Shown piece by piece: positions 11,309 to 27,445 of a stretch of DNA of 52,367 nt. The notes below the pieces were generated by a model that saw only the letters and a list, made by a program, of their open reading frames with translations, made no database searches and had not been told where the DNA came from. Every line of letters begins with the position of its first letter. Position 1 is the stretch's first letter. Location of the stretch: NCBI GenBank assembly GCA_964468755.1, contig CAYXWH010000005.1, positions 1-52,367 of the forward strand. The letters are read 5' to 3'. Origin of the DNA: an uncultured Dehalococcoidaceae bacterium (GTDB lineage Bacteria; Chloroflexota; Dehalococcoidia; Dehalococcoidales; RBG-16-60-22). A program made the position numbers and the translations under genes.

Positions 11309-11992
11309 TTAGCTTAAAGAGATAAGCCCCTGTTTGATGGCGACGACCACGGCTTCGGTGCGGGCATTCGCGTTCAGCTTACGCAATATGGAAGTCACAT
11401 GGTTTTTAATGGTCTGCTCGCTGATGCCGAGTTCGGCGGCAATCTGCTTGTTCAGGAACCCCTTGGCAATATAATCGAGTATCTCGGTTTCTCGTGGAGT
11501 AAGCGGGGAAAGGAACGGTTCGGCTTCGCTTCGCCAGTAGAGTTCCTGAAACTGGTGCAATACGTGTTCGGCGACTTTGGGGCGGGTGGTGAGGCATTCG
11601 TTTATCGGGTGCTCGCCGCGGGCTACCCGTCGGATATGGTCGATGAGCTGGCTGGCGGTAACCTCCTTGCTCAGGTACGCCACTGCCTGTGCCTTGAGTG
11701 CCTGGAACAGCTGGGCGTCGTTGGGGCTGGAGCTAAGCACGATTACGCCGATATTCGGTGAGCGCTGTTTTATCCGGTGAGCCAGGCTCAGACTGTCATC
11801 GGAAGGACCATCAATATCTACCAGGGCTACCTCCGGTGGTAGATTATCGATGGTAGTCAGCGCTTTCTCATTGACATCCACCACTCCCGAAATTTCTATG
11901 TCGTCAACATCACCAAGGGAATGCTCGATGCCCTGTCGGAACAGGGACTGCTGGCTGACCACGAATACTTGAATTTTATTACGCGCGTTCAT
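11309..11992 (-). CDS. NarL/LuxR-family response regulator (REC + LuxR HTH), atypical receiver
   Basis: LTPRETEIL..IAKGFLNKQIAAELGISEQTIKNHVTSILRKL HTH; REC with LVD but SQQ in place of DD. Confidence 0.9.
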   Translation of the reverse strand: MNARNKIQVFVVSQQSLFRQGIEHSLGDVDDIEISGVVDVNEKALTTIDNLPPEVALVDIDGPSDDSLSLAHRIKQRSPNIGVIVLSSSPNDAQLFQALKAQAVAYLSKEVTASQLIDHIRRVARGEHPINECLTTRPKVAEHVLHQFQELYWRSEAEPFLSPLTPRETEILDYIAKGFLNKQIAAELGISEQTIKNHVTSILRKLNANARTEAVVVAIKQGLISLS

Positions 11993-12043
11993 GATGCGAC
12001 TGATCAGGCGATCCCCGAATGCCGGGTTCGCCTGGAAACAGCT

Positions 12044-15000
12044 TTACCTCCTCCTTTTTTGCGGTACCGGTATGGCAGATTTGGTCACCGAACGGAAGAC
12101 TTCGACGAGATGCGGGTCGAACTTCGTGCCCGCCCCCAGTCTTATTTCCTCCAGAGCGCGGTCAGGGGTGAATGCCGCTGCGTCGGGCCGATCCGAGGTG
12201 AGCTCGGCAAAGGCGTCAGCAATCGCCAGAATACGGGCTTCCAGCGGTATCTCCTCACCCTTTAGCCCTTTGGGATAACCACCGCCGTCATATTCCTCAT
12301 GGTGGTAGAGAATGCCATCAACGCATGGCGCCAGCTGGTGCGACTGGTTGATAATAGCTGCCCCAAGCTGCGGGTGTGTTCTTACCACGTCCCACTCCTC
12401 GTCAGTGAGCTTATCATGCTTGTTGAGGATTTCATTACTTATACCAATCTTACCAATATCATGCAGCATTGCACAACACTCCAGCCGGTTTTTCTCCAGC
12501 GATCCCAGATTGAGGGCATCGGCCAGAGCCAGTGAATACTCAATAACCTTCTTGGAGCGATGGCTGGTATAAGGGTTTCTGGCGTCTACTGTTGCTGCCA
12601 GGGCGTAAATTGAGCTTAGTGAGCCGCTACTATCGTCGTGAATTGCCGGGCTGAGACTGACGTGCTCCGGTAATGTTTTTTCCGAGGCGCACTGGCACTG
12701 GTTACCGCCATTGTGTTTGGCGTAGTAAAGCGCCGCGTCCGCCGTCATGATAATCTCATCGGCGCTGATACCGTCCACCGGCCAGGTGGATAGTCCCAGG
12801 CTGGCGGTTAATTGAATATCCCTGGCGTTCACCTTTTTCGAGATCTGTGTGCGTACCCGTTCCGCTACCTGTTGTGCGGCTTCGATGCCTGTCTGTGGTA
12901 ACAGGATAGCAAACTCGTCACCACCGTAGCGGAAAGCCTGGTCAGCAGTTCTAATGGTCTTCTTAAGGGTATTGCCAACCTGTTTGAGTAGCTTATCCCC
13001 GGCAGGGTGTCCGTAACTGTCGTTGAACAACTTGAAAGAATCGAGGTCAAGTATGATTAATGAGAAAATGCCACCGTAGCGCGAGTGACGCCCGATTTCA
13101 CTGGTAATCATTTCATCCAGAGAGCGGCGATTAAGCAGCCCGGTTACCTGGTCGACGCGGGCTTGCTCCTCTACTTTGGCGTAAAGCTGAGAATTCTTCA
13201 CGGCGATGGAAATCTGTGAAGACAGGTGGTCAAGAATCTTGATGTAGCGCTGGCTAATGGCATTCGGCTTCAGACTGGTTATCATCAGGCTGCCCATCAC
13301 TTTGCCTTCGGCAAAGAGCGGCAGGCATGCAACATAGCGTATTCCTTGCTTCCGGTGATAGTCCCCGATAGTGGTAGTGGTATTCTGTTGCAGGTCTGGC
13401 TCAATCAGCGGCTTCTGATGGTTAATCACCCATTCCGTGAAGGTGCCTTTGAGTGCCAATCGGTCCTGCACTTTAAATTTGGGGTCTATCTTGCTGGAGA
13501 CCGCTATGACGCGAAGCTCTTCCCCCTCAACCAGGAGGATTGATGCCCAGTGTATCTGTATTAATTTTTTAATCTCGGCTATGAAGCTGTCGAATATTTC
13601 CTGTATATCCAGTTTGGAAGTAATGATGGCGATGGAGCGGTTAAGCAGGGATAGTTCTTCTTCCCGTGCTCGGAGCTGCTCCCGCAGGTATTCCTTCTCC
13701 ATGCTTACCGCTACTATATTGGTCACATCCTCGAGAAGATTGAGGTCTTCCAGCGAGTAGCGCCCGTGTTGTCTTTTACTCAGTGCCAGGATGGCAATCA
13801 GCTTCTCGCGGCTTATGAGCGGCATAAAGAGTTCTATCTCATTCCGGGAAATTACTTCCTTTTCCTGTTCCCAGAGGCTGCGGAATTCAGGCAGGATGGA
13901 CAGACTTTCTCTGGTCAATGGTTTTTGTTCTCGATTCAGATACTCGATAATAGGATGGTTCTCTTTTATCGTGAGGCCGGAGAGGGGGTTAGCTTTCTCC
14001 GCGGGCTCGGCAAGCTGGGTCGTGAAATCATTGCTGCCGGTCTCGGGGAAAAGCAGACAGACCCGTTTGCAGCTGACTGACTTGGCGATAAGGCTCAGCA
14101 GGTTCCCGCCTTGTGCCTTGAGGGTGAAGACGTTGTGAATGGTGTTGGCGAAATACGTGAGTTCCTGGCGGTAATTGTAGATTTGTCCCTGGATCCCGCG
14201 GCTTATCAGGAAAAAGAGGGAGCTGCGCAATCGGTAGACGAATGTGGCGATGGCGATAGCCACTGCAGTAGCGGCAGTAGTCGCGGTTAGGCTGAGATCA
14301 AAGTCCAGCACGGAATGCAGGATATAAAGCAGAACCCAGTAGCTTGCGCAGCCGATAACTACCAGTGTTGCCCAGGCTACACTCCGCCTCAGTACTATCT
14401 TGATGTCCACCAGTTGGTGCCGGATTACTGCATAGCTAAGGATAAAGGCGTTGATAAGGCTGCCGAAGTGGCTTATCGGGTACACACTTATCGAGGGGAT
14501 AATGGCAAGGACGGAAAACGCGGTTACCACGCAGATGCCCAGTATAAGCGTGATAATTTGATTGTACAGTATCAGATTGTCGAGTGTCTTCAGTCGCTTT
14601 ACGAATACATAAAGGTTCCTTACTACCAGAGTTATCAGGGGAACTACTATGGCAATGATGCCGATGCCGTAATCAGGGTAGTGCCGCTCGCCAATTATCT
14701 CGATATCTCTGGGAACGTATCCCAGCCCCACCAGAATCATCATTATTCCCAGACAGATATAGGCGAATGGCAGCCAGCGGCCCTGTCCCGGCGCAAAGAA
14801 AGAAGAAGTGAAGCAATGGAACTGCACTGCCATGAATGCGAAGGCCAATATGACTATCCGAAACAATACGAGGCCGTGTTCCGGGAAAAAATTACTGCGG
14901 GCAAAGTAGTCGGTGAGACTCCATATGATGGCCGAGATGAGAAATATCACGAAAAGCGTGTTCCGTCGCTGCCAGGGGCGACTGCTTAGCGCGGTTACCA

Positions 15001-15055
15001 GAAGCGGTATATACGCAATGGTCGCGATGAATGGAAAAACGGAGTATACATTCAT
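12044..15055 (-). CDS. Membrane-bound diguanylate cyclase / HD-GYP protein (7TM-like sensor, 2 GAF-like domains, GGDEF, HD-GYP)
   Basis: About 10 N-terminal TM helices; DQVTGLLNRR; RTAD-x5-GGDEF; HDIGK; HHEEYDGGGYP. Confidence 0.9.
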   Translation of the reverse strand: MNVYSVFPFIATIAYIPLLVTALSSRPWQRRNTLFVIFLISAIIWSLTDYFARSNFFPEHGLVLFRIVILAFAFMAVQFHCFTSSFFAPGQGRWLPFAYICLGIMMILVGLGYVPRDIEIIGERHYPDYGIGIIAIVVPLITLVVRNLYVFVKRLKTLDNLILYNQIITLILGICVVTAFSVLAIIPSISVYPISHFGSLINAFILSYAVIRHQLVDIKIVLRRSVAWATLVVIGCASYWVLLYILHSVLDFDLSLTATTAATAVAIAIATFVYRLRSSLFFLISRGIQGQIYNYRQELTYFANTIHNVFTLKAQGGNLLSLIAKSVSCKRVCLLFPETGSNDFTTQLAEPAEKANPLSGLTIKENHPIIEYLNREQKPLTRESLSILPEFRSLWEQEKEVISRNEIELFMPLISREKLIAILALSKRQHGRYSLEDLNLLEDVTNIVAVSMEKEYLREQLRAREEELSLLNRSIAIITSKLDIQEIFDSFIAEIKKLIQIHWASILLVEGEELRVIAVSSKIDPKFKVQDRLALKGTFTEWVINHQKPLIEPDLQQNTTTTIGDYHRKQGIRYVACLPLFAEGKVMGSLMITSLKPNAISQRYIKILDHLSSQISIAVKNSQLYAKVEEQARVDQVTGLLNRRSLDEMITSEIGRHSRYGGIFSLIILDLDSFKLFNDSYGHPAGDKLLKQVGNTLKKTIRTADQAFRYGGDEFAILLPQTGIEAAQQVAERVRTQISKKVNARDIQLTASLGLSTWPVDGISADEIIMTADAALYYAKHNGGNQCQCASEKTLPEHVSLSPAIHDDSSGSLSSIYALAATVDARNPYTSHRSKKVIEYSLALADALNLGSLEKNRLECCAMLHDIGKIGISNEILNKHDKLTDEEWDVVRTHPQLGAAIINQSHQLAPCVDGILYHHEEYDGGGYPKGLKGEEIPLEARILAIADAFAELTSDRPDAAAFTPDRALEEIRLGAGTKFDPHLVEVFRSVTKSAIPVPQKRRR

Positions 15056-15084
15056 GGGAAAATTATTACCTTAAATGTGGGGGC

Positions 15085-15133
15085 TGTCAAGTAAAACTAA
15101 AGTAGGTTAGCTAAAGTAAGCAAGACTAAAGTA
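15085..15133 (-). promoter_or_regulatory. -35 box (TTGACA) of the cyclase gene preceded by three CTAAAGTA direct repeats
   Basis: CTAAAGTA at 15097, 15111 and 15126; TGTCAA at 15085-15090. Confidence 0.6.
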
Positions 15134-16804
15134 CTATCGTACCGTTGCCGTGCCAGCTTCAACTGCTTCACTGGCGGCAGCCAGTGTTTCCGCTGTGCTG
15201 AGCAGGAAGGAAAGTATAGTTGCCGGAGGATTAACATGTGGCGGTTTGAGGTGCGCCAGGTCCGCCCCTTCCTGCTGTTTCTGGCGGGTATAGTGAGCAA
15301 AGGTCCCCTTTGGGAGCAGAGTGACCGCAACCCCGAACTTAATAGATTCAGCATAATCGCCGCGCAGCGGTGAATCGGCGCTGAAATCATCATTCTCGGT
15401 TTCCATAATCTGGCGGTGTACCGCCTGGGCTATATCTGCCTCGCTGGGTAATGAGTCATGCTTGGGTTCAATGAGGAGGTGCAGCACCGCTTTCCCCGGT
15501 TGCTTGTAGGCTGTCCATTCCTGGTAATCGATACCGGTATCCTGGATTGCCCGCCATATGGTCTTTTCCGTGAGCCGGACGACCACGAAATCGAGCAGGT
15601 CATCGGCCCGTCTCTCAAAGACCATCTGTGGCAGGTTGATGCCCACCTTTTCATTTCGGAGCGAAGTTATCCGTATTATATCACCGACCCGGTATCTCAC
15701 CAGGGCGCCGCCATGGAAACTGGTGACAACAATCTCGTAATTTTCCCCGGGGATTACTTCATCGAGCAGAACCGTCTGCGGCTGGTAACTTTTATCCTCC
15801 TGCCACTTGAAATGTTCCTTTTCCGGAATGAACTCCAGGAAATTGAGGCTGGGAACGAAGGTCATTGATTGGTAGTCCCAGGTCTGGGTGGCGACGATGC
15901 CCATTTCGGTGCCGGCATACACGTCCAGGGGATATCGGCCCCAGAGTTCCTTGATCTTATCCCGGTACACCCAGCTATCCAGTCCGCTGCTGATAATCCC
16001 CCGCACCGACCACAGGTCTCTGGGGAGCATCGCCCGACGGGCTAGCTTGCTCTTGACCGCTCCTTTAGCCAGACGGAGCAGCGCCCGGGGTTGGGACAAC
16101 AAGGGGCGGATATCCATTTTGGTTGAGGAGGAACCCAATTTTTCACCAACGGCGACCAGCACCAGGGACAGACCAAAGAAATAGTCGATTCCTTCACTGA
16201 GGGCGCACTTGAATCCTGATTTCACCCGGTCTTCAAATGATAGGTTTTCCGCTTCTTCCAGCGGGGGCAAATGTTTAATGGGGGTCTGTTGCTCCAACAT
16301 GCAAGCCATGGCACCGGACATGTATGGCCTGGGGGCGACCGTGTAGACCAGCCGGGGATGATTGGGCAGCCGCGAAGTATCGTTCCAGCCCCGGCAATTT
16401 GACAAGTTGCCGATGCCGTACATTATCACGCTTAATTCTTCGGAGTATGCCTTGGTTACCGGCACCCACTTGCAGGGGTATTCACCGGACCTTCCCGAGG
16501 TGTGTACCCACATGACGGGACTGTCCGGTAATACGTCTTCTCGCTTCTCAAGCAGTTCCGGACAGTAATCAGCATAGGTGGTCAGGGGTGCCATCTCGCG
16601 AAACTCGTCGACGGTTTTCGGTTTTAACCCGCGCATAATCTTATCGCCAAGAGCGCTGCGGTTTAATAAATCAAGCTGCTCCAGTAGCAGGCGGTTTTGA
16701 ATGGTCATAAACTGCTCGATGTCAAGGCCGGTGAATCCACAGCACATCTGCCATAGCTCTTCATTCCTGCCCTGCTGAAGGAGCTCAATGGCTCTAGGCA
16801 TCAA
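15134..16804 (-). CDS. GH3 auxin-responsive-promoter family acyl-acid amido synthetase
   Basis: Adenylation motifs TSGRSG..K, YAGTE and YRVGD; PLTTYADY; overall length 556 aa. Confidence 0.85.
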   Translation of the reverse strand: MMPRAIELLQQGRNEELWQMCCGFTGLDIEQFMTIQNRLLLEQLDLLNRSALGDKIMRGLKPKTVDEFREMAPLTTYADYCPELLEKREDVLPDSPVMWVHTSGRSGEYPCKWVPVTKAYSEELSVIMYGIGNLSNCRGWNDTSRLPNHPRLVYTVAPRPYMSGAMACMLEQQTPIKHLPPLEEAENLSFEDRVKSGFKCALSEGIDYFFGLSLVLVAVGEKLGSSSTKMDIRPLLSQPRALLRLAKGAVKSKLARRAMLPRDLWSVRGIISSGLDSWVYRDKIKELWGRYPLDVYAGTEMGIVATQTWDYQSMTFVPSLNFLEFIPEKEHFKWQEDKSYQPQTVLLDEVIPGENYEIVVTSFHGGALVRYRVGDIIRITSLRNEKVGINLPQMVFERRADDLLDFVVVRLTEKTIWRAIQDTGIDYQEWTAYKQPGKAVLHLLIEPKHDSLPSEADIAQAVHRQIMETENDDFSADSPLRGDYAESIKFGVAVTLLPKGTFAHYTRQKQQEGADLAHLKPPHVNPPATILSFLLSTAETLAAASEAVEAGTATVR

Positions 16805-16960
16805 TTACCTCCCAGGCAAAGCTATACCAAATTCACTATGGCAGGTGTAGCCTTAGCTTGGGAAGTGATAAGGTTCTAGAACATAGTTCTATTGTGTGTG
16901 TGAACCCGTGAGCGTGGTGAGGCATGTGGCGTGGTTAGCGGGCGGTGTGGTAACGAGTAA

Positions 16961-17323
16961 TTAGGGCTCTTGAGAAGCCGATTCCTGGGAAATGGCAAGC
17001 TCCCTGAGTTGCCGGTCCAGTTCCTCAAGGCAGTCATTTAGCGGCGGTTCTGCCAGTCCCAGTCCGCAGCTGAGGAAAAACTCGAGGAAGCTGCGCATGA
17101 GTATCCCTGTCTTCCGGGTAAACTGGAGGAATTCTCGCCTGGTTATGTAGTCTCCCTGGATTTGAGCCTCGTCATTATTTTGCAACTGGCTATCAATGAG
17201 GGTATGGAGATATTCCGGTCGGCTCATGTCACCGCGTTGAACGTCTATTTTGCTTACTAACGCCTCATCGACGACCAGGATGGCCTCTTTTTCGTCAACT
17301 ATCAGTACCCTGTCCCCAGCCAC
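16961..17323 (-). CDS. Hypothetical protein, RHH/CopG-like N-terminus
   Basis: ILVVDEALVSKID.QRGDMSRPEYLHTLIDSQL pattern; likely GTG start at 17323 (ORF opens at 17344). Confidence 0.55.
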   Translation of the reverse strand: MAGDRVLIVDEKEAILVVDEALVSKIDVQRGDMSRPEYLHTLIDSQLQNNDEAQIQGDYITRREFLQFTRKTGILMRSFLEFFLSCGLGLAEPPLNDCLEELDRQLRELAISQESASQEP

Positions 17324-17481
17324 TGTATGCCCCCTTGGTTGCATCTTGTCTGATTTACACTCTCAATATAGCACCGGGGCATAAAGCGAGGTATAAAAGT
17401 GATAAATAATACATAAAATTTTTATTAAGCTTTCATTAAGACTATTGTACCGGGGGTGTTCCCATGCTTCCGGCGAAATGA

Positions 17482-17513
17482 ATGAACCGAAGGCAATTGT
17501 GCCTTCGGTTCAT
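17482..17513. terminator. 14-bp perfect stem-loop downstream of the wHTH gene
   Basis: ATGAACCGAAGGCA-attg-TGCCTTCGGTTCAT; weak U-tract. Confidence 0.55.
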
Positions 17514-17538
17514 GGGTAAAACCGTATACTACTGGTGG

Positions 17539-17820
17539 CTAGGCGACCGTACCAGTTTCCGGTTCCAGCATCTCCTGGATATTGCCAATCAATTCCAGTA
17601 GCTTGAGACCGTTCTCCGTCACCTGGTAGGTAACCGATGGGTTGCCAACCTGGACCTTGTCGATGAGACCTTGCTTCATCAGGAAACTGAGATATTTTTG
17701 TATCTGGCTGTAGCTCAGATTGGCATTGTACATGATTTTGGTTTTCCCCGCTCCGTTTTCGCCCACCTTCAACATGTCGGCAATTATCTCGATGTCGGAG
17801 CGGCGCTGATTTACCATCAT
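17539..17820 (-). CDS. Winged helix-turn-helix regulator (COG3432/HTH_45-like)
   Basis: RRSDIEIIADML...GKTKIMYNANLSYSQIQKYL...YQVTENG. Confidence 0.8.
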   Translation of the reverse strand: MMVNQRRSDIEIIADMLKVGENGAGKTKIMYNANLSYSQIQKYLSFLMKQGLIDKVQVGNPSVTYQVTENGLKLLELIGNIQEMLEPETGTVA

Positions 17821-17855
17821 CCACTTGCCTCCACCAGTACATAGTAACTAGGACT

Positions 17856-17884
17856 ATTGTAATGCTCATTGCGCGTACTGTCAA
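17856..17884 (-). promoter_or_regulatory. Near-consensus sigma70 promoter of the wHTH gene
   Basis: TTGACA-N17-TACAAT, then GGAGG Shine-Dalgarno. Confidence 0.75.
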
Positions 17885-17933: not shown

Positions 17934-18737
17934 CTAAAAAAAGGCAAGGTACCAGCCGAGGATATCCTTTCCCCAGAAAAGGGTAACGATAGGCCCTATT
18001 GCCAGGAAGGTGCCGTACGGTATAACATCTTTGCGCCCCTTTTTTCTCAGCAGGAGCAGGGCGATGGCGTAGACGCCCCCGATGACAATACCGATTAAAA
18101 GGGCGGTAAATACCCCGGGGAAGCCAGTGACCAGTCCAATCAGTGCCGCCAGCTTCACGTCTCCCCAGCCCATTCCCTGCGGACTGATAAGAATCGGTAT
18201 CAGAAAAAAGAAAAAGCCGATGGCACCACCGAGCAGGCTGCCGGTGAGCCCGCTCAGTCCGGCTGCCACCATGGGCCAGGGCAGCGAAATATCGATGATT
18301 CCCGGCGGCGGGTGAAAGAAGCTGATAACCAGAGCCAGCAGCGCTGCCGGGTAGGTTACCTTGTTCAGGATAAGCTGGTGTTCCCAGTCGATAAACAGGA
18401 TGGCCAGGAAAAGGCAGCTGTAAAAAGCGGTGACGACGAAGGCAGCGCCAAGCCCGTAGTGCCAGTAACTGAAAGCCACCAGGCCGGCGCTGGCTATCTC
18501 TACCCACAGTGAGCGAAGCGGGATATGGGCATGGCAGTAGCGGCAGCGGCCTCTCAGCCATATATAGCTGAGCAACGGTACCAGGTCTTTAATTGAGAGC
18601 CGGCGCTGGCAGGCATCACAGTGCGACGGCGGAGACAGCAGCGACCGGCCCGCCGGTAAGCGGTCAATACAAACGTTGAGAAAGCTGCCGATAGCCAGAC
18701 CGAGCAGAACGAAGATGATGGTCAGGGTGATTTCCAT
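17934..18737 (-). CDS. pilD: Prepilin peptidase (A24)
   Basis: GSFLNVCIDRLP, SHCDAC, CRYC, GMGWGDVKL, IPYGTFL motifs. Confidence 0.95.
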   Translation of the reverse strand: MEITLTIIFVLLGLAIGSFLNVCIDRLPAGRSLLSPPSHCDACQRRLSIKDLVPLLSYIWLRGRCRYCHAHIPLRSLWVEIASAGLVAFSYWHYGLGAAFVVTAFYSCLFLAILFIDWEHQLILNKVTYPAALLALVISFFHPPPGIIDISLPWPMVAAGLSGLTGSLLGGAIGFFFFLIPILISPQGMGWGDVKLAALIGLVTGFPGVFTALLIGIVIGGVYAIALLLLRKKGRKDVIPYGTFLAIGPIVTLFWGKDILGWYLAFF

Positions 18738-18745
18738 TTGACTCT

Positions 18746-18774
18746 ATTTTGCCTGCTTTGCCGGGTCTAGTCAA
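18746..18774 (-). promoter_or_regulatory. Promoter of pilD
   Basis: TTGACT-N17-CAAAAT. Confidence 0.5.
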
Positions 18775-18920
18775 CCAGAGAAACCTGTAGATTGGCACCT
18801 GGTTTGCCTGTACTTTGCTGCCATCATTACATGTAGCGCCGTGCTTTTCAAGGCAGGTGATGTCTCTTCACCGCTTCATACATGACTATATTACTATCAT
18901 GAACCAGTACCAATACCTCA

Positions 18921-18948
18921 TTGAAATAGAATCGGAGTATGTTAATCT
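18921..18948 (+). promoter_or_regulatory. Promoter of the major pilin
   Basis: TTGAAA-N16-TAATCT with an extended TG; AAGGAGG Shine-Dalgarno. Confidence 0.5.
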
Positions 18949-18996
18949 TAGAATTAGTCAAATAATTTATAATTCATCGCGATAAGGAGGCAACTG

Positions 18997-19425
18997 GTGA
19001 GAAAATTATTTAAGAAGTTTCGCTATGGCGAAAAGGGGTTCACCCTGATTGAGCTGCTGGTGGTGGTAGCCATTCTGGGTGTACTGGCGGCGGTAGTGGT
19101 CCCTAATGTAGGGAAATTCATGGGCAGAGGTAAAAATGAAGCCGGTCTGACGGAACTCCACAACGTCGGGACTGCCATGATGGCAATGATGGCGGATACG
19201 GGGACAGCTAATATTACGGCGGTTGCCGCTACCGATCCTGCCAATGACATGAGCGCTTTCCCCGATGGCACTAGTCCGCTCTACGGAGCTTCCGGCTCGC
19301 GTTACCTGATGAAACAAACAACCAAATACTGGTATAGCTGTGAAGGCGACGGTACAGTACGTGGCTGGTGGACAGCAGACGGGTCTACCAGTGGTGGAGA
19401 GATAGGCGTAGATGACGCGCCTTAG
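18997..19425 (+). CDS. pilA: Type IV pilin, probable major pilin
   Basis: Class III signal KG|FTLIELLVVVAILGVLAAVVVP; monocistronic with a strong Shine-Dalgarno and terminator. Confidence 0.85.
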   Translation: MRKLFKKFRYGEKGFTLIELLVVVAILGVLAAVVVPNVGKFMGRGKNEAGLTELHNVGTAMMAMMADTGTANITAVAATDPANDMSAFPDGTSPLYGASGSRYLMKQTTKYWYSCEGDGTVRGWWTADGSTSGGEIGVDDAP

Positions 19426-19508: not shown

Positions 19509-19561
19509 ATCCACAACCCTGCGTTTTCAGTGACAGTCTACAAGCGGATATTTTGCAGGGT

Positions 19562-20647: not shown

Positions 20648-22263
20648 TATTCATTTCCCCCGGCTTTCAGTATAATATTAAAGACCATATCTTCGTTTAC
20701 ATCCTCTATGTACTCTTCCCCGGCGTCTTCCTCGCCGCCGCCTTCCCCGCCGGTGGTTTCTCCTTCTTCACCGGTAGCTTCTCCTTCCTCGCCAGTGGTT
20801 TCCTCGCCCTCAGCGGACCCTTCTTCACCGAAACCTTGCTCGCTTTCTGCCTGACCAACACCAACCCTTCTGATACTGGCGATGGTGACTTCGGTGAATC
20901 TGCCGCACTTGTCGAGTTTTCTGGCAAATGAGAGGACTTCCTGTTCGCTCAGCGCCTGCCCCGATAAATTTATTTGAGTACTGCTGTGAGCAATGTGGCT
21001 CAGCTGGATACCGGCGAACAGGTTGTCAGTGACCGCCTGTAAATCGCCATTAATGGTGCTGCCGCCATTTTCTATTTCAGCCAGTGCCGACGTAAAGCTA
21101 TCCCGCGATGCTGTGGCGGTGGCAACTTTTTGTTCCAGTTGGTTAATTTCCTGCTGCAATTCCTGTTTCCGGAGCAGTTTCTGCTCCAGTATATAGTTGG
21201 TGTTGTCGAGCTGGCCATTCATGGCGCTAATACTCGCGGAGGTCGCCTGGATAGCCATTATCCCGCCGGCGATTAAGCCAATGATTACCACGGCACTGGG
21301 CACGGCAATGATGCGCGACACGGAAATCGGTTTGGCGCGGTAGGGGGCAGGTAGCGCATTGAGATTGGCGACAGACGGCCCCGCTTCTTTGTCCAGTTCT
21401 TTGAGGGTGAGCCCGACATTCACCATATAATTGGTGAGGTCCAGCTTTTTGGGGTTTTTCAGTGGTGATGCGAGTACTGACAGCGGATAGCCCAGTTCAT
21501 CAGCCAGGGACTTGCCCAGGTCAGGCTTTTCCGCCAGCTCTCCGGTGACGAATATCGGTGTCTCATCGTCAAGAGGGTTTTCCGGATTGTTTGAGTTATA
21601 GAATTCGATGGTCCGCCGCACATCATCCCGCACCATGGCGAGCTTTTCCTCTGATGAGAGGACTTCGCTGGGAAAGGGGATAGTGCGTACCGGCTGGGGA
21701 GTCCCGTTCGCCATGATGATGATGTCGGCTTCAATCGACTGCATATCGACGATGATTGCCGTCTCTTCCTTAACTACCCTGGCGAGGGCAAGTGGTTTAA
21801 TATCCATCAGATAGGGCTTCAACCCCACCTGCCGGGTTATCTTGATCAGGTTATCGGCGCTACGACGGGGTATGGCAACCAGGAATACCTGTATTTTCCC
21901 TTCCGGCGCCGGTCTCGCCTGCCAGGAAAGGTATAGTTGATCGGGAGGTACCGGCAGCACTCGTTTTGCTTCCCGGGTCACCGCTTCCTCGAGCATTGCC
22001 CGGGGTAACTGGGGCAGAGTGACCGGGCGGGACAAACAGTTACGGCCGCTTATGCCCAGGACAACCTTTTTTGCCCTCACCTTGTTGGCTTTGAGCAGAT
22101 GTTTTATCTTGGTAGTAATTTCCGCCTCTTTGATGTCTTCCTTAAGCTCGGCGGAGCCGAGCTGGAGCTGCGCGCTGGCTAGCTTGTTGAGGCGTTTGCC
22201 CCGGCTCACCATCAGCCGGATGCTGGAGTCATCGATATAAAGGGTAACAATCTTCCTGGCCAA
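20647..22263 (-). CDS. pilM: PilM-PilN fusion protein (actin-like domain, TM, coiled coil, PilN-like domain)
   Basis: PilM-like N-terminal ~300 aa; NLNALP resembling the PilN INLLP motif; one TM; LSGQALSEQEVLSFARKL PilN-like fold. Confidence 0.75.
   Translation of the reverse strand: MARKIVTLYIDDSSIRLMVSRGKRLNKLASAQLQLGSAELKEDIKEAEITTKIKHLLKANKVRAKKVVLGISGRNCLSRPVTLPQLPRAMLEEAVTREAKRVLPVPPDQLYLSWQARPAPEGKIQVFLVAIPRRSADNLIKITRQVGLKPYLMDIKPLALARVVKEETAIIVDMQSIEADIIIMANGTPQPVRTIPFPSEVLSSEEKLAMVRDDVRRTIEFYNSNNPENPLDDETPIFVTGELAEKPDLGKSLADELGYPLSVLASPLKNPKKLDLTNYMVNVGLTLKELDKEAGPSVANLNALPAPYRAKPISVSRIIAVPSAVVIIGLIAGGIMAIQATSASISAMNGQLDNTNYILEQKLLRKQELQQEINQLEQKVATATASRDSFTSALAEIENGGSTINGDLQAVTDNLFAGIQLSHIAHSSTQINLSGQALSEQEVLSFARKLDKCGRFTEVTIASIRRVGVGQAESEQGFGEEGSAEGEETTGEEGEATGEEGETTGGEGGGEEDAGEEYIEDVNEDMVFNIILKAGGNE
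20750..20812. repeat. Three imperfect 21-bp tandem repeats encoding TGEEGE(A/T)-type units
   Basis: ccggtggtttctccttcttca / ccggtagcttctccttcctcg / ccagtggtttcctcgccctca. Confidence 0.8.
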
Positions 22264-22265
22264 GG

Positions 22266-22832
22266 TCAGTCTCCTTGATTATGGTTATAGACAACGAACT
22301 GGAGGTGGGTTGTCGCCCAAACTTCGTTTTCATCGGTAGTTTCGGGAATATTCATATCGGCGGATTTAACCACACCGGTGGTAAAGTCAGTATTCAGCTT
22401 GATAATGAATTCAATCAAATCGTCCACTTTCCCTTCGGCTCTGGCATTAAAGGATAATGCCACGCAGTTAACACCGGCCATTTCTTCCGGTGAGATGCCT
22501 GATGTGGACAGGACCATCAGTTTCACATTACAGGACTTGGCAATCTCAAATAGAATGTCGGTTTCCTCGATGCTATCGATGGGAAAACACAGGTCATCCC
22601 GGGCAGTTTCCAGTTCGGCTTGAATCTGCTCAGCCTGCTCGTCCAGCGCTGCTTTTCGGGACGAGAGGTCTTTGAGTTCAAAATTGCTTAACCTTTGTTC
22701 GGCAATGGCTATATCCGCATTGAGCTGGTCCTGCGCCTCAATTTGCTTGGCGTAGGTAAAACCAAGGCTGGCGACAGCTACAATGAAAATGCCGGTGATG
22801 AGAACGAGATAGCCTGTTTTGCTTAGCTTCAA
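22266..22832 (-). CDS. PilO-like pilus alignment protein
   Basis: N-terminal TM, coiled coil, ferredoxin-like C-terminus (FNARAEGKVDDLIEFI); position next to pilMN. Confidence 0.65.
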   Translation of the reverse strand: MKLSKTGYLVLITGIFIVAVASLGFTYAKQIEAQDQLNADIAIAEQRLSNFELKDLSSRKAALDEQAEQIQAELETARDDLCFPIDSIEETDILFEIAKSCNVKLMVLSTSGISPEEMAGVNCVALSFNARAEGKVDDLIEFIIKLNTDFTTGVVKSADMNIPETTDENEVWATTHLQFVVYNHNQGD

Positions 22833-22854
22833 TTTATGCTCCTAACCGGCGGCA

Positions 22855-23697
22855 TTAGTTCACTACTCGCCAGGAAATAATAGTTGGCACTGAGTCAATC
22901 ATTATAATATCGGCAACTATGGTGGCGGTGGTCTCACTGTCTTTGCTGGCGGTAGCCGTAATGACGTAGAGTTCACCGGTCATTTCGCCCACCTCGCCAA
23001 TGTCAGTCCGGTTAGCCACCACCCAGGAATAATCACCCTCCAGTTCTCCGTCTCCGGTGATGTAGAAACTCTGGGTCTCTATCGGATCATTCTTGGAAAC
23101 ATCGGGATAGGGTTCCGGGAATTCCCATTTGTACATATAAGCTCCCGCCGAGTCCTGGTGTTCTGCCGGCTCGGCGGCTGACAGGTTATCGGGAAAACTG
23201 GCCGCTGAATCTGGCTTGTACTGGTAGCCGGGCGGCAGCCTGGCTCCGACCTCGGTTATGTGTATGACCGTCGTTTCTCCCTGCCAGGTAACCGTGATGG
23301 TGTATTTCCAGGCTTCGGCACCTCCGTCCCATACGATATCCCCGCTTACCCCGAGATGCTGATTGTGGCTGCCAGCCTGTACCAGTTCGCCAAAATAGAC
23401 GGTGAAAACCCCTTTATCGTCGGTCTGTATATCCACCTGCATCCGGTTAACGTTATCCGACAGTTGTGCCGGTGGTGAGGTGCTCTCTGACAGGCACCAG
23501 AGGGTGTTTTCTATCCCCGCCTCCGCCGCATATATTCCATTTATGCCTTTATCGACGACACGGGTGTGGTTGAGGGTGGTTGCCGCGTAGTTCAGCGTGG
23601 GGACGATGGTCAGCCCACCGAGCATCAGGAGCGCTAGGACGATGGGCAGGGCCTGACCTCGTTCACTGGCAATGGCTCGCTTTAAAAATCTTATCAT
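22855..23697 (-). CDS. PilX/GspK-like minor pilin
   Basis: RG|QALPIVL lacking Glu5; YAAEAGIE motif. Confidence 0.75.
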   Translation of the reverse strand: MIRFLKRAIASERGQALPIVLALLMLGGLTIVPTLNYAATTLNHTRVVDKGINGIYAAEAGIENTLWCLSESTSPPAQLSDNVNRMQVDIQTDDKGVFTVYFGELVQAGSHNQHLGVSGDIVWDGGAEAWKYTITVTWQGETTVIHITEVGARLPPGYQYKPDSAASFPDNLSAAEPAEHQDSAGAYMYKWEFPEPYPDVSKNDPIETQSFYITGDGELEGDYSWVVANRTDIGEVGEMTGELYVITATASKDSETTATIVADIIMIDSVPTIISWRVVN

Positions 23698-23709
23698 TGT
23701 TGTCCCCGG

Positions 23710-24243
23710 TCAGTTAAAATTGTTGCGGCGGCTAATCTGGTACTCCCTGGTCTCACCGGCATCTTCGTAGGTTGTTGCTATCTTTACCGTGAAAATCTCA
23801 TTCTGATAGCTGACATTGCTGGTATTTGCGGGGTCAACCGGGTCATAGCCGATGTAATCGGCAATTCTGGTATCGGCATTCAACCCGTCGCTGCTCCAGT
23901 GGTTCCGCATGAGGGTTCCCACATGGTCCGACAGCCCGGTGAAATAGTACGTCACCGAGTGGTACACGTCATCACTTTCATAGTCCCGTTCTGTCCAGGA
24001 TAGAATCATAAAATCATCAGCCGACAGGTTATCGGTGACCACGATCTCCGCCATGCGGGCATCGCGGCTGATCCAGTAGCCGGCGTTCTGCACCTGGCGG
24101 ATAACCGTCATCTCGTTGTTATTGCGCTCGTTACAGTTAAAAATCTGGAAAGTGGTGGTCATGGCGGCACTACCTATGAGCGCGATAATCACTGAAGCCA
24201 CTATCAGTTCGAGCGCAGTGAAACCTTTTTGCCCTTTCCTCAT
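23710..24243 (-). CDS. Minor pilin (PilW/GspJ-like)
   Basis: KG|FTALELIVASVIIALIG. Confidence 0.8.
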   Translation of the reverse strand: MRKGQKGFTALELIVASVIIALIGSAAMTTTFQIFNCNERNNNEMTVIRQVQNAGYWISRDARMAEIVVTDNLSADDFMILSWTERDYESDDVYHSVTYYFTGLSDHVGTLMRNHWSSDGLNADTRIADYIGYDPVDPANTSNVSYQNEIFTVKIATTYEDAGETREYQISRRNNFN

Positions 24244-24668
24244 CTGTCCACCTTGTAGCTCTCCAGTTCGAGAACTTCCTTGCTGTTACGAGTAACGGTG
24301 ACGGTTATCTTCTGAATACCGTCATCGGTTGCGTGTACCGGTTCAGCGGTGATACTGGCCGAATAACCGGTATAGTCTACGTCATCGGGGACCGGTGCCG
24401 GGGCGTATCCCGTGGCATTCTCAGAATAAGCAAGCTGCTTGGCCCACTCCATTTGGGCAAGAGCCAGACTTTCCGCGGTATTCTGTTCATTGGCGACCAC
24501 GGTGGCTTTGGCGCTGGTCGATAAGCCGCTGAGAAAGGCAACCGCGATTGCGCCCAGCAGGGCCAGCGCGACCAGTGTTTCCAGAAGAGCCACCCCTGAC
24601 TGGTTGCCGGGGAGACTCCCTAGTCTTTTCAGTAGTTGATATGGGACTATCATGGTTCTCCGGAACAT
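24240..24668 (-). CDS. Minor pilin (PilV/GspI-like)
   Basis: SG|VALLETLVALALLGAIAV. Confidence 0.78.
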   Translation of the reverse strand: MFRRTMIVPYQLLKRLGSLPGNQSGVALLETLVALALLGAIAVAFLSGLSTSAKATVVANEQNTAESLALAQMEWAKQLAYSENATGYAPAPVPDDVDYTGYSASITAEPVHATDDGIQKITVTVTRNSKEVLELESYKVDR

Positions 24669-24694
24669 AAGCCGGCCTGGCCTCCCTCTTTATA

Positions 24695-25903
24695 CTAGAA
24701 TGCCTGCCCGTACATGGAGTACATGGCGCTTACCAGCGACAGTGCCATCAACCCCACCACGATGGCGATAACCAGGGTCATCGCCGGTTGAATGAGATTG
24801 ATGAGCGAGCGGGTGCTATCCTCAGCCTCGGCTTCATAGCTCTGGGCTACCGCGTTCAGCGAGGTGTCAAGGTTGCCGGTTTCCTCCCCGACCTTGACCA
24901 TTTGCACCATCATTGGCAGGAAAAGGCTGTTCTTGGTCATCGGCTGGGATAAACCTTCACCTTTCAGCATATCCTGCTGCACATCGGTGAGAGCCTGGGT
25001 AAGCACTCTATTACTGCCGCTCTGGATGACCAGGGGCATGATTTCCGTCAGTGGCAGACCGGCGCGAAAGAGCAGAGCGATATTGCGACAGTAGCGCGAT
25101 AGCTCATTGAGCAGGTTTACCCGTCCCATCAGGGGCAGGCTGATGAGCATTTTATGCCACTTATATTTCCCTTCCGGCGTTTTAATATAGGCAACGGCTA
25201 CGCCGGTTACAAAGAGTAGTCCGAGCACAATGTAAAGGATGTTGCTCCGCAGCATGTTCGCCATGTCAATAACTATCCTGGTCATTGCCGGTAGTTCGGC
25301 GCCGAGCGACTCATACAGACTGCTGAAAGCGGGCAGGACAAAGACAACCAGTACGCCGATAACAATAATGGCGACTACGGCGGTGATTACCGGGTACATC
25401 AGGGCGCTTTTAATCTTCTTATTGGCGACGACTTCCTTCTCGATGTAGTCGGCTATCTGCCTCAGCATCGTCTCCAGGCTGCCCGTCTGCTCACCGACAC
25501 TCAATGACCGGCAGTAAATTGCCGGAAAGACCTCAGGGTGCTTGCCCAGCGCCGTGGATAACTGACTGCCGTTCCTCAGGTCGGCGATGACCTCGTCGAG
25601 TACCTTCTTCAGAACGCGGTTGGACATCTGGCTCTGGAGCAGCTCCAGAGCAGCAACAATATTCACCCCGGAGTCCAGGAGGAGGGCGAGCTGGCGATAG
25701 AAGAGTACTATATCGTTTGGTTTTATTTTAAAGAACTGCAATGCCAGCCGGTCTGAGCTGAGAAAGGGTGTGTAGGACTTCAGGTTAATCAACCGGTAAC
25801 CGGCATAGCTCAGCAAATCAGCAGCAGCTTCCTCGCCGGATGCGGAGAGCTTCCCTTTGACTATTTCACCCCGTTCATTGTAGGCTACATATTGGTATAC
25901 CAT
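24695..25903 (-). CDS. pilC: Type IV pilus platform protein (GspF family)
   Basis: FYRQLALLLDSG, GEQTGSLETML, ALMYP, GEETGNLD, IQP motifs. Confidence 0.95.
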   Translation of the reverse strand: MVYQYVAYNERGEIVKGKLSASGEEAAADLLSYAGYRLINLKSYTPFLSSDRLALQFFKIKPNDIVLFYRQLALLLDSGVNIVAALELLQSQMSNRVLKKVLDEVIADLRNGSQLSTALGKHPEVFPAIYCRSLSVGEQTGSLETMLRQIADYIEKEVVANKKIKSALMYPVITAVVAIIVIGVLVVFVLPAFSSLYESLGAELPAMTRIVIDMANMLRSNILYIVLGLLFVTGVAVAYIKTPEGKYKWHKMLISLPLMGRVNLLNELSRYCRNIALLFRAGLPLTEIMPLVIQSGSNRVLTQALTDVQQDMLKGEGLSQPMTKNSLFLPMMVQMVKVGEETGNLDTSLNAVAQSYEAEAEDSTRSLINLIQPAMTLVIAIVVGLMALSLVSAMYSMYGQAF

Positions 25904-25927
25904 TACCTCTCCCCTGGAAGCTGCAAA

Positions 25928-27445
25928 TTACTCAACCGTGTAGGCATTGCGCAGCACTTCGGATGGGGTAGTGATTTCCTCTTTCACTTTGTACATGCCA
26001 TCCTTGAGCAGCGTTACCAGCCCGTCTTTAATCGCTTGCTCCCGTAGCTGGCTGGAACTGGCCTCGTTAAGTAACAATGTTCTCAGCTCGTCGGTAGCCT
26101 GTAATATTTCAAAAATACCGGTTCGTCCTTTGTAGCCGGAATTGGCACAGGCTTTGCAGCCGCTGCCGTAGAGGAACTCGTCTCGTTCTTCCCCAACCTC
26201 TTTGCTGTAGGTCAATTGCTCAATTATGGGCACCTTTTTCATCTGGCCGCAGTTGGGACAGATGGTGCGCACCATTCGCTGAGCGACCACTCCAATGAGC
26301 GCCGAGGATACCAGAAACGGCTCGACCCCCAAATCGATGAGGCGCATTACCACACCGATGGCGTCATTGGCATGGATTGAAGACAGCACCAGGTGGCCGG
26401 TGAGGGCTGACTGTATGGCGATGTTGGCGGTTTCGGCGTCGCGTATCTCACCGACCAGGATGACATCGGGGTCAAGACGTAGTATGGACCGCAGCCCGCT
26501 GGCAAAGGTAATCCCCGCCCGGGGATTCACCTGTATCTGGTTGATGTTTTTAAAGCGGTACTCTACCGGGTCTTCAATGGTAATAATGTTTCTTCCTATC
26601 TTATCCAGGCGGTTAATCGAGGCATAAAGGGTGGTCGTCTTGCCGGCGCCGGTGGGACCGCTGGCCAGAATCATGCCGTAAGGGACTTTCAGCATCTTTT
26701 CAAACTTTTCCAGGCTATCGGGAAGGAAACCGAGTTCGGGAAGGTTAATCATTGCCCGTGACTTATCGAGGAGTCGAAGGGCAGCCATTTCGCCGTAGAC
26801 AGTGGCAATAGTGCCGACCCGGACATCGATGAGCCGACCCTTTGTTTTTACGGAGAACTGACCGTCCTGCGGGCGGTGGTGGTCGGCGATGTTCATGCTC
26901 GCCAGGATCTTGATTCGTGAGATGAGGGGGGTGGCGGTTTCCAGGGGCAGGGAAAACATGTCCAGGAGAGTGCCGTCAACGCGATAGCGCACCCGCAGCC
27001 TGTCTTCTTCCGTTTGAAGATGAACATCGGAAGCCCGGGCTTTTACCGCCTCGTCAACAATGAGGGTAAGTGCCTGGGCTACCGGTGCCTCGGTGGACGT
27101 ATCCAGTTTGATTTGTTGAGTGCTTTTTTCACCGGGAAGGGTGATGTTGGAAATCTGCTTCTCAATTTCATCATAGGCTTTATAATTAAAGTCTATGGCT
27201 TCATGAACCTCCTCAGCACTGGCGGCTTCCGGCTCGATCCGCATCTGGGTCTGGCTGGCGAGGGCTTCCAGGGCGAAGATATCAGAGGGATTCACCATGG
27301 CTACCGTTAAGACGTTACCTTCGATAGCGACGGGTATAGCCGCGTATTTTCTCGCCATTGCCTCGGGTATTAACTTTAATGCCTCAGTTTCGGGCAGATG
27401 CTTTCGCAACAGCGTCTGAGCTTGTTCTAACTGTTTTTTTCGCAT
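25928..27445 (-). CDS. pilB: Type IV pilus extension ATPase (GspE family)
   Basis: ASDVHL, PQDGQF, GPTGAGKTTTLY, LVGEIRD, CPNC..CKAC zinc site, GRTGIFE. Confidence 0.95.
   Translation of the reverse strand: MRKKQLEQAQTLLRKHLPETEALKLIPEAMARKYAAIPVAIEGNVLTVAMVNPSDIFALEALASQTQMRIEPEAASAEEVHEAIDFNYKAYDEIEKQISNITLPGEKSTQQIKLDTSTEAPVAQALTLIVDEAVKARASDVHLQTEEDRLRVRYRVDGTLLDMFSLPLETATPLISRIKILASMNIADHHRPQDGQFSVKTKGRLIDVRVGTIATVYGEMAALRLLDKSRAMINLPELGFLPDSLEKFEKMLKVPYGMILASGPTGAGKTTTLYASINRLDKIGRNIITIEDPVEYRFKNINQIQVNPRAGITFASGLRSILRLDPDVILVGEIRDAETANIAIQSALTGHLVLSSIHANDAIGVVMRLIDLGVEPFLVSSALIGVVAQRMVRTICPNCGQMKKVPIIEQLTYSKEVGEERDEFLYGSGCKACANSGYKGRTGIFEILQATDELRTLLLNEASSSQLREQAIKDGLVTLLKDGMYKVKEEITTPSEVLRNAYTVE

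Follow-up and report, generated by a model that had tools for sequence, protein, structure and literature searches.

A conserved GH3–sensor–regulator cassette beside a type IV pilus cluster in Dehalococcoidales, a candidate small-molecule sensing module

A stretch of 52,367 nucleotides from an uncultured Dehalococcoidaceae bacterium (NCBI GenBank assembly GCA_964468755.1, contig CAYXWH010000005.1, positions 1 to 52,367), referred to here as the window, carries a cassette of five genes on its minus strand. These encode a winged helix-turn-helix (wHTH) regulator, a small conserved protein (ORF127), a GH3-family acyl-acid amido synthetase, a membrane sensor with cyclic di-GMP (c-di-GMP) turnover domains, and a LuxR-type regulator. 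We propose that the region 11309–17884 constitutes a self-contained small-molecule sensing module, situated beside a separately transcribed, monoderm-type type IV pilus cluster (17934–27445); judging from sequence, we give the full mechanism outlined below a probability of about one half. The narrower proposition, that GH3, sensor, and regulator form a signalling module, is strongly supported by comparative genomics: ligase and sensor genes hardly ever occur apart, which suggests a small-molecule signalling module of a kind so far undescribed. Literature searches on GH3 enzymes with diguanylate cyclases, on Dehalococcoidia pili and c-di-GMP, and on HisKA_7TM yielded no description of the cassette.

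An earlier, sequence-only reading of this DNA had described a type IV pilus locus fused to a GH3/c-di-GMP/LuxR signalling cassette. Genes were called anew from the open reading frame (ORF) listing together with Pfam and NCBIfam scans of the window proteins, and every gene named in that reading between 11309 and 27445 was found at its place. The features of the cassette itself, all on the minus strand, are as follows.

11309–11992, minus: atypical NarL/LuxR-family regulator with receiver (REC) and GerE domains (Pfam; alignment)
12044–15055, minus: membrane sensor, 1003 aa, transmembrane (TM)-GAF-GAF-GGDEF-HD_5 (Pfam; motif alignment; hydropathy)
15062–15090, minus: sensor-LuxR promoter TTGACA-17-AATAAT, 6 nt from the ATG, no Shine-Dalgarno sequence
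15097–15133, minus: three direct repeats TACTTTAG(T), spacing 14–15 bp, abutting the sensor -35 box
15134–16804, minus: GH3-family acyl-acid amido synthetase (Pfam GH3_M 8.5e-15, GH3 N-terminal domain 1.7e-6)
16873–16891, minus: palindromic operator TAGAAC-TAT-GTTCTAGAAC at the GH3 promoter, sole copy in the 52-kb window
16961–17344, minus: ORF127, small conserved protein, possibly ribbon-helix-helix (no Pfam or NCBIfam match)
17539–17820, minus: wHTH regulator, 93 aa (HTH_45 3.5e-25; Sso10a family)
17884–17856, minus: wHTH promoter TTGACA-17-TACAAT, kept across loci

Homologues of the GH3 protein at approximately 70% identity occur by the thousand in Dehalococcoidales metagenome bins. For comparison we used a close set of 80 species-level Dehalococcoidales genome loci (GH3 55–72% identical), onto which all window proteins were mapped, and a distant set of 80 metagenome loci, gathered using five of the GH3 representatives (35–45% identity) from a full-library search; in the distant set, GH3 is 41–57% identical to that of the window, except in two closer loci (65% and 69%). 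Adjacency counts include only those loci with enough sequence on the relevant side. Counted in this way, the sensor gene directly follows GH3 in 64/64 close and 38/40 distant loci (102 of 104 together), and LuxR follows the sensor in 58 of 60 close loci. The wHTH gene lies upstream in 72/80 close loci, and ORF127 has orthologues in 68 of the 80 close and 43 of the 80 distant loci. The five-gene cassette recurs in 80 close genomes and, with variations, in 80 distant loci, a recurrence that makes its arrangement non-random. These counts bear out the proposal that GH3, the GGDEF/HD-GYP sensor, and LuxR, along with wHTH and ORF127, belong to one conserved functional unit. As a control, the unrelated uvrC gene is kept downstream in 23/45 close loci.

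In the window, the sensor consists of about eight TM helices, HisKA_7TM-like in character, and two GAF domains (hydropathy, Pfam), followed by a GGDEF domain (Pfam, 6.1e-44) with intact GGDEF motif and RxxD I-site and by an HD_5 domain (Pfam, 3.5e-40) with intact HD and GYP motifs. The GGDEF stretch IRTADQAFRYGGDEF is kept in 66 orthologues, as are the HD-GYP motifs LHDIGK and HHEEYDGGGYP, and by these sequence criteria the sensor qualifies as both a GGDEF cyclase and an HD-GYP phosphodiesterase. The earlier description of its input region as ‘7TM’ holds for orthologues and relatives, which match PF16927 (HisKA_7TM), but not by Pfam for the window protein, of which neither the full sequence (significant matches) nor the isolated N-terminal TM region gave a match to this family. 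A homologue search with the TM region returned orthologous fragments only and is therefore not usable as an independent test. Sensors of the distant set have the same TM and GAF regions, all match PF16927, and differ in their output (Pfam), which takes one of five forms across the loci.

Output type 1: GGDEF and HD_5
Output type 2: HisKA_3 and HATPase, followed 4–10 bp on by a NarL-type response regulator
Output type 3: HisKA and HATPase
Output type 4: hybrid kinase with receiver domain
Output type 5: stand-alone 7TM protein with no output domain

With a constant HisKA_7TM-GAF input and a varied output, the invariant partner of GH3 is the input module and not the c-di-GMP enzymes. A swap of output with retention of input is what would be expected if the sensor input perceives something tied to GH3, and the comparison accordingly points to GH3 and the sensor input probably working together.

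The regulator gene has changed along with the sensor output. The LuxR receiver retains the phospho-acceptor (Asp59), the Ser/Thr, and the Lys, but the alignment shows a conserved S-Q at the site of the Mg2+-binding acidic DD pair. The acidic pair is missing in all 63 of 63 loci with a cyclase-type sensor (SQ in fifty-five, SP in five, DK in two, SN in one) and is DD in 5/5 kinase-type loci. The gene had been called an ‘orphan’ NarL/LuxR regulator, and indeed no kinase gene adjoins it; its best NCBIfam similarities, both below cut-offs, are to the MadR and NarL families. Although REC and GerE domains are present, the replaced acidic pair sets the protein apart from phospho-dependent NarL/LuxR response regulators, and owing to this loss we regard it as an atypical member of the family that probably acts independently of a kinase, the missing pair being the one that binds Mg2+ and the phosphoryl group. 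The simplest reading of these alignments would be that an ancestral sensor-kinase/NarL pair was rewired to a c-di-GMP output, after which the regulator lost its dependence on phosphorylation.

Two conserved cis-elements, neither of them remarked upon in the sequence-only reading, lie at the promoters of the sensor and GH3 genes. The first is the triple repeat upstream of the sensor (unit TACTTTAGT), kept in about 60 loci despite the encoded proteins being only 50–70% identical; neither the rest of the window nor 1.17 Mb of loci has any cluster of TACTTTAG(T) away from the sensor-LuxR promoter. At the same place, kinase-type loci with an adjoining regulator have a different triple repeat, CCTTTATGAAA. 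Repeat arrays precede the sensor in three of four kinase-type loci that have a LuxR-type gene, versus 0/34 loci that have no adjoining regulator, a distribution that fits auto-activation by LuxR as the putative binder. The promoter that the repeats abut (15090–15062) is strong and sigma-70-like, with 11/12 matches, and its -35 and -10 boxes are near-invariant across loci. Because the -10 box ends 6 nt before the ATG and there is no Shine-Dalgarno sequence, the sensor-LuxR mRNA is probably leaderless.

The second element, the palindrome TAGAAC-N3-GTTCTAGAAC, precedes GH3 in 72 of 77 close loci and is all but absent from the remainder of their sequence. In the distant set it is present in 41/42 loci with wHTH/ORF127 versus 5/14 without (the latter having at least 1.5 kb of upstream sequence), and on account of this co-occurrence wHTH and/or ORF127 are its likely binders. 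In many distant loci in which a PEMT-like methyltransferase gene precedes GH3 (see below), the palindrome lies approximately 660–715 bp upstream of GH3, ahead of the methyltransferase gene. The GH3 5' leader of many loci (e.g. L029, L036, L043, L045, L052, and L061) contains a second palindrome, TTTGCCA-N2-TGGCAAA, some 20–40 nt ahead of the start of the gene; the window has no clear copy. This palindrome could act as a further operator or form a hairpin in the RNA.

A 124-aa ORF at 17510–17884 proved to be a spurious overlapping frame, the real gene being that for the 93-aa wHTH protein, which is preceded by a strong sigma-70-like promoter (17884–17856; again 11/12 matches). The -10 region of this promoter (AGTACAATAGTC) resembles the sensor-promoter repeat (AGTACTTTAGTC). 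In many loci (L033, L036, L038, L040, L045, L046, and others), the inverted repeat TAGTCCT-N9-11-AGGACTA begins inside the wHTH -10 box or just behind it; it could serve autoregulation or form a 5' hairpin. On the 3' side of the gene there is a perfect hairpin with a 14-bp stem (ATGAACCGAAGGCA / TGCCTTCGGTTCAT; 17482–17513, minus), which may end the wHTH transcript and was not listed by the terminator scan because it has no T-run. ORF127, with a likely true start at the GTG at 17323 (120 aa), had been called ‘RHH-like’, a call that is backed by no Pfam or NCBIfam match and draws on a low-confidence beta-alpha-alpha secondary-structure order. AlphaFold2 models returned pLDDT (predicted local distance difference test) values of 46 from the single sequence and 52.8 from a six-sequence alignment, too poor for a fold search, so that only the order of secondary-structure elements was used; the modelled beta-alpha-alpha start is compatible, at low confidence, with a ribbon-helix-helix (RHH) fold. 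A profile search of PDB sequences with ORF127 gave no match, a set of 5.8 billion proteins contained only six homologues, and NCBIfam holds no matching model for ORF127, GH3, or the PEMT-like protein.

The GH3 gene probably starts at the ATG at 16801 (555 aa). Its product scores 55.0 bits against GH3_M and 27.9 bits against the GH3 N-terminal domain, both above the gathering score of 23.6 bits; GH3_C is not detected in the window protein and is detected in relatives (P0174 and P0187). In the PDB, it matches plant GH3 structures only (best E 8e-15, over the central domain). Three nucleotide-binding motifs are conserved in 80 orthologues (alignment): motif III (RYRVGD, for RYRxGD) is intact, motif II reads Y-A-G-T-E against the reference YGSSE, and motif I, TSGRSGEYPCK versus SSGTSxGxxK, is one residue longer, with Arg replacing Thr. 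The earlier statement that the roles of bacterial GH3 enzymes are largely unknown has been overtaken by the characterisation in 2025 of OlsH (Sinac_1599) of Singulisphaera acidiphila, the sole bacterial GH3 with a characterised function: it is a GH3-like N-acyl-ornithine synthase that uses free fatty acids, and it is active with comparably divergent nucleotide-binding motifs (PMC12493201).

The neighbours of GH3 in relatives provide further hints about its chemistry. About 40 distant loci (e.g. L081:9324–9965) have a gene for a PEMT/DUF1295-like membrane methyltransferase of about 190 aa, which lies 25–55 bp ahead of GH3; in one representative (P0175) the two are fused. Neither the window nor any of the 80 close loci has this methyltransferase gene. 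FabF adjoins GH3 in 24 loci in two arrangements, either divergent and upstream of GH3 (L003:8252–9523, minus strand, and 13 other close loci) or collinear between GH3 and sensor (L081–L085, L093, L094, and L097, plus strand). A specialised beta-ketoacyl-ACP synthase was considered and rejected for this FabF, whose score marks it as a genuine fabF equivalog (beta-ketoacyl-ACP synthase II), so that its place next to GH3 is only suggestive. In other distant loci, ThiF-family and B12-radical-SAM genes lie between GH3 and the sensor. With the OlsH precedent and these PEMT-like, FabF, ThiF-like, and B12-radical-SAM neighbours in relatives favouring a lipid-like product, a hydrophobic or lipid-like acyl-amino acid is, by analogy, plausible as the GH3 product. 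One locus (L071:10001–15164) has three tandem GH3 paralogues, 56–59% identical to the window GH3, in place of the single gene, which suggests substrate diversification.

We therefore outline the following mechanism, to which the probability given at the outset applies. GH3 would adenylate a carboxylic acid, most likely of the fatty-acid type, and ligate an amino acid to it, yielding an amphipathic acyl-amino acid. Its expression would be gated by the palindromic operator found at its promoter, bound, as the co-occurrence implies, probably by wHTH and/or the RHH-like ORF127. The HisKA_7TM-GAF-GAF input would sense the GH3 compound or its precursor and shift the balance between GGDEF cyclase and HD-GYP phosphodiesterase, a step proposed because of the invariant adjacency and the swapping of output domains. 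The co-transcribed LuxR, probably kinase-independent, would read the state of the module, possibly through c-di-GMP or by binding the sensor directly, and would auto-activate the sensor-LuxR promoter through the three TACTTTAGT repeats observed there. The pilus machinery is, circumstantially, the most likely physiological target, since no gene system besides it is a recurrent companion of the module.

The pilus cluster and its surroundings in the window comprise the following features.

25928–27445, minus: PilB-type assembly ATPase (Pfam T2SSE 3.5e-125; partial MshEN 1.1e-15 at the N-terminus)
24695–25903, minus: PilC platform protein (Pfam T2SSF 3.3e-60, two stretches)
24240–24668 and 23710–24243, minus: two pilin-like genes, N_methyl motif in both
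22855–23697, minus: ORF280, hydrophobic N-terminus, no Pfam or NCBIfam match
22266–22832, minus: ORF188, at the PilO position, N-terminal TM segment, no Pfam or NCBIfam match
20647–22263, minus: PilM-PilN fusion protein (Pfam PilM_2 4.5e-12, PilN 2e-7)
19562–20647, minus: PilT-type retraction ATPase, 361 aa (Pfam T2SSE 3.3e-46)
19470–19504, no strand assigned: bidirectional intrinsic terminator in the convergent gap between pilin and pilT (16-bp stem, 8 GC pairs, T-run)
18997–19425, plus: major type IV pilin (G/FTLIE leader motif; Pfam N_methyl 1.8e-9; NCBIfam pilin models)
17934–18737, minus: PilD prepilin peptidase (Pfam A24_N_bact 9.8e-32, Peptidase_A24 1.2e-16)

Several details of the earlier description change as a result. 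All genes had been placed on one strand, which does not hold for the major pilin: the others are encoded on the minus strand, whereas this gene is encoded on the plus strand and runs towards pilT, with the strong bidirectional terminator between them. The call of ‘pilO’ for ORF188 is based on its position and its N-terminal hydrophobic segment, and that of a third ‘minor pilin’ for ORF280 on its position and hydrophobic N-terminus. ORF188, adjacent to PilM-PilN, is syntenic in 29 close and 6 distant loci, and the pilin-like genes and ORF280 have orthologues at the same position in 9–12 close loci. The ‘fusion’ of cassette and pilus locus did not survive the promoter and terminator scan: weaker promoter-like sites precede pilB and pilD, and with separate promoters at wHTH, sensor, pilB, and pilD, the cluster is not one operon and cassette and pilus genes are separate transcription units.

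Whether cassette and pili nevertheless belong together was assessed by clustering every ORF of the 160 close and distant loci without bias and ranking the neighbours. The commonest non-cassette neighbours in both sets are pilus genes (close and distant loci, respectively): PilD, 41 and 14; PilT, 29 and 16; PilMN, 30 and 6; pilin, 26 and 11; PilC, 21 and 8. UvrC (21 and 0) and a GTPase (16 and 0) are confined to the close set. PilD lies directly upstream of wHTH in 39/60 close loci, pilus genes are near the cassette in about two-thirds of loci, and there are at least five kinds of juxtaposition: collinear upstream, divergent upstream, PilT downstream, minor pilins downstream, and a PilS-like block downstream. 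In the last of these, found in 14 loci (L014:15589–20412, L008, L015, L017, L020–L025, L028, L030, L062, and L070) and not in the window, LuxR is followed by a PilS-like kinase (6TM_PilS and HisKA_3), a canonical NarL-type regulator, two pilins, and a second PilM-like gene on the opposite strand; the block looks like a dedicated pilin-regulating two-component system. In relatives, the neighbourhood of GH3, sensor, and pilus genes recurs in both sets, but about one-third of loci are without it; L015 (CP070693.1), for example, has adjoining pilus genes, and L026 (CP070810.1) has none within 10 kb. The association between cassette and pili is real but facultative.

A number of observations weigh against the mechanism or against its extension to pili. 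Concerning the module itself, motif I of GH3 is divergent; the methyltransferase, FabF, ThiF-like, and radical-SAM genes are all missing from the window; the VpsT-type c-di-GMP motif W[FLM][TS]R was not found in LuxR, in which the only Trp of the region is in YWRSE; and all loci probably share one ancestral arrangement, from which it follows that the locus counts are not independent events. Concerning the pili, pilus genes are missing from the surroundings (up to 9–10 kb upstream) of 19–21 of the 60 close loci, and such loci are scattered over some ten clades of a neighbour-joining GH3 tree of the close set; adjacency to uvrC is nearly as conserved in that set as adjacency to PilD. A scan for the two cassette operators that covered the pilus promoters, the remainder of the window, and every locus found no copy at a pilus promoter. 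Rfam searches, at gathering and E-value thresholds, revealed no c-di-GMP riboswitch at pilus genes, Pfam revealed no PilZ domain in any pilus protein of the window, and strict and loose regular expressions revealed no MshEN c-di-GMP motif (RLGxxLLxxGLI) in the N-terminus of PilB. The MshEN motif was sought as a tandem 24-residue RLGxx(L/V/I)(L/V/I)xxG(L/V/I)(L/V/I)xxxxLxxxLxxQ, and an in-frame stop means that the PilB ORF is not extendable upstream. The previously supposed c-di-GMP link from cassette to pili was thus sought in the form of riboswitch, PilZ domain, MshEN motif, and shared operator, and none was found. Control of pili by the cassette is plausible; a ‘quorum-like’, secreted, density-dependent signal is pure inference.

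That signal is the core of the circuit originally envisaged: cells would secrete the GH3 product as an autoinducer with density-dependent action, the cyclase would perceive it, and piliation (attachment, aggregation, DNA uptake) would be switched by c-di-GMP and the local regulators. All of the evidence for GH3–sensor coupling can be counted in its favour, as can the finding that, outside the cassette, pilus genes alone recur as neighbours in both sets, arranged in at least five ways, and the 14 loci in which the cassette sits between pilus assembly genes and the PilS-like kinase/regulator/pilin block. There is also a known parallel in Xanthomonas, where the fatty-acid signal of the Rpf/DSF (diffusible signal factor) system influences pilus motility by way of an HD-GYP protein. 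Set against this are the lack of any exporter seen, of a cis-element shared by cassette and pilus promoters, and of a riboswitch or recognisable c-di-GMP receptor in the pilus proteins, as well as the one-third of loci with no pilus genes nearby and the fact that, where a pilin regulator is visible, it is a separate PilS-like kinase with a canonical regulator. On balance, we consider an autoinducer circuit of this kind possible but unlikely.

Envelope homeostasis is an alternative that we regard as doubtful. GH3 would in that case make a membrane aminolipid, and the 7TM-GAF protein would monitor membrane composition or stress and adjust c-di-GMP and transcription. The activity of OlsH offers a precedent (PMC12493201), the PEMT-like, FabF, and B12-radical-SAM neighbours in relatives are typical lipid-modifying enzymes, and the sensor input is largely membrane-embedded. 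However, the cassette has no OlsI-like O-acyltransferase (alpha/beta-hydrolase), the clade of the window has neither the methyltransferase nor the FabF neighbour, and a bulk-lipid enzyme has no obvious need of a dedicated repressor–operator pair and a sensor in every genome.

The roles of product and substrate could also be reversed, with the sensor detecting an incoming carboxylic acid (fatty, aromatic, or a foreign signal) that GH3 then conjugates and inactivates. Plant GH3s inactivate hormones such as auxin by amino-acid conjugation in just this manner; the GH3 promoter is operator-controlled and apparently inducible; and adjacency data cannot tell product from substrate as the ligand. The methyltransferase, FabF, radical-SAM, and ThiF-like genes nevertheless fit production better than detoxification, and we hold inactivation to be rather improbable.

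That the gene order is simply inherited, with GH3, cyclase, regulators, and pili being functionally unrelated neighbours in small, slowly rearranging genomes, would be consistent with the broad synteny of Dehalococcoidales loci and with the retention of the unrelated uvrC at a frequency not far below that of PilD. Against it, GH3–sensor adjacency persists down to 41% GH3 identity despite replacement of the output and insertion of genes between the two, housekeeping neighbours are lost in the distant set, dedicated conserved cis-elements occur at exactly the GH3 and sensor promoters, and degeneration of the regulator tracks the type of sensor output, all of which makes mere inheritance highly improbable. 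Finally, the suggestion that GH3 acylates pilins or another envelope protein has only the nearness of the pilin and PilD genes to recommend it and can practically be dismissed, as free amino acids are the substrates of the GH3 enzymes known so far, OlsH among them (PMC12493201), pilus genes are missing from one-third of loci, and the invariant partner of GH3 is the sensor and not a pilin.

The invariant pairing of GH3 with a specific membrane receptor offers a concrete hypothesis for the function of a second group of bacterial GH3s besides OlsH, and it would give the orphan HisKA_7TM sensor domain a candidate class of ligands. The exchange of a kinase for a cyclase, with matching decay of the phosphorylation pocket of the regulator, would be a clean natural example of pathway rewiring. 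Dehalococcoidales are abundant in anoxic sediments and aquifers and mostly uncultured, and their genomes are small and encode few signalling proteins. A cassette that has stayed whole in more than 100 lineages is therefore likely to control something important. Should pili be the target, the module would explain how attachment to, or aggregation with, partner organisms is regulated. A more far-reaching interpretation, which we offer as speculative and rather unlikely, is that of a new signal class, namely an acyl-amino acid, methylated by the PEMT-like enzyme in sister clades, perceived by a dedicated family of HisKA_7TM-GAF receptors whose output was rewired in evolution between histidine kinase and c-di-GMP, and governing pilus behaviour (aggregation, attachment, DNA uptake) in these uncultured, syntrophy-dependent organisms.

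The cassette and pilus cluster are flanked by housekeeping genes, including those for UvrC, UPF0182, EF-G, RF1, and ETF, and base composition is uniform along the window. On these two grounds a mobile-element origin of the cassette was ruled out, and the region is assigned to the core chromosome and not to an island. Between uvrC and LuxR, on the opposite strand, lies an ORF of 137 aa with a TOBE domain of the molybdate-binding type (10842–11255, plus). An XerC/D-type tyrosine recombinase (Phage_integrase and SAM-like N-terminal domain; 31991–32908, plus) is encoded amid the housekeeping genes, with no sign of an adjoining mobile element. The far end of the window contains a ribosomal protein L10 leader (Rfam RF00557, 66.5 bits; 48412–48542, minus) and a tRNA gene (52177–52248, minus).

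Among known systems, OlsH is one of the closest. Like the cassette enzyme, it is a bacterial GH3-family protein with three recognisable but divergent nucleotide-binding motifs, and it has a methyltransferase gene alongside (OlsG there, the PEMT-like gene in relatives of the window locus). Unlike the cassette enzyme, OlsH belongs to a lipid-biosynthesis operon that has no sensor or regulators. No OlsI-type alpha/beta-hydrolase O-acyltransferase was found among the cassette genes or their recurrent neighbours, and the cassette is therefore not an OlsH/OlsI lipid pathway. A BLAST survey with OlsH found matches mainly in Bacteroidota, Pseudomonadota, and Planctomycetota, and its text does not mention Chloroflexota (PMC12493201). 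The plant enzymes JAR1/GH3.11, GH3.12/PBS3, and VvGH3-1 share the same Pfam families and the YRxGD motif with the window GH3, but the similarity is weak and partial, motif I differs, and the substrate-pocket residues are not comparable.

The Rpf/DSF and BDSF systems, comprising RpfF, the adenylate-forming ligase RpfB, RpfC, and the HD-GYP protein RpfG in Xanthomonas and RpfR in Burkholderia, are similar in that a clustered enzyme handles a fatty-acid-derived molecule and a membrane or GGDEF-type sensor acts through c-di-GMP turnover (HD-GYP, GGDEF-EAL) on pili and biofilm. They differ in that the cassette cluster has no crotonase-family RpfF gene, its HD-GYP domain is fused to the sensor in place of a REC-HD-GYP protein such as RpfG, its sensor input is HisKA_7TM-GAF and not of the RpfC or PAS type, the predicted GH3 reaction is an amide conjugation, and the phylum is another; the resemblance is one of logic only. 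Regulators of the VpsT/CsgD type likewise combine REC with a LuxR-type HTH, have an incomplete phosphorylation pocket, and partner with c-di-GMP, but the cassette LuxR has no W[F/L/M][T/S]R motif and keeps the phospho-acceptor Asp, the Ser/Thr, and the Lys. The cassette is not a LuxI/LuxR system of the N-acyl-homoserine lactone type: the N-terminus of its LuxR is a receiver and not the autoinducer-binding domain PF03472, and no LuxI-type synthase was found among the window ORFs scanned (several small ORFs lay outside the scan).

The pilus genes, in turn, are nothing unusual for a monoderm (Gram-positive-type) type IV pilus cluster: PilB, PilC, PilD, PilT, PilM-PilN, the major pilin, and two N_methyl pilin-like proteins are all present, no secretin was seen in the cluster, and PilB has a short N-terminus with no MshEN c-di-GMP motifs. 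The cassette beside them we class with a known kind of circuit, in which a clustered small-molecule enzyme is combined with a cognate sensor and with second-messenger and transcriptional output.

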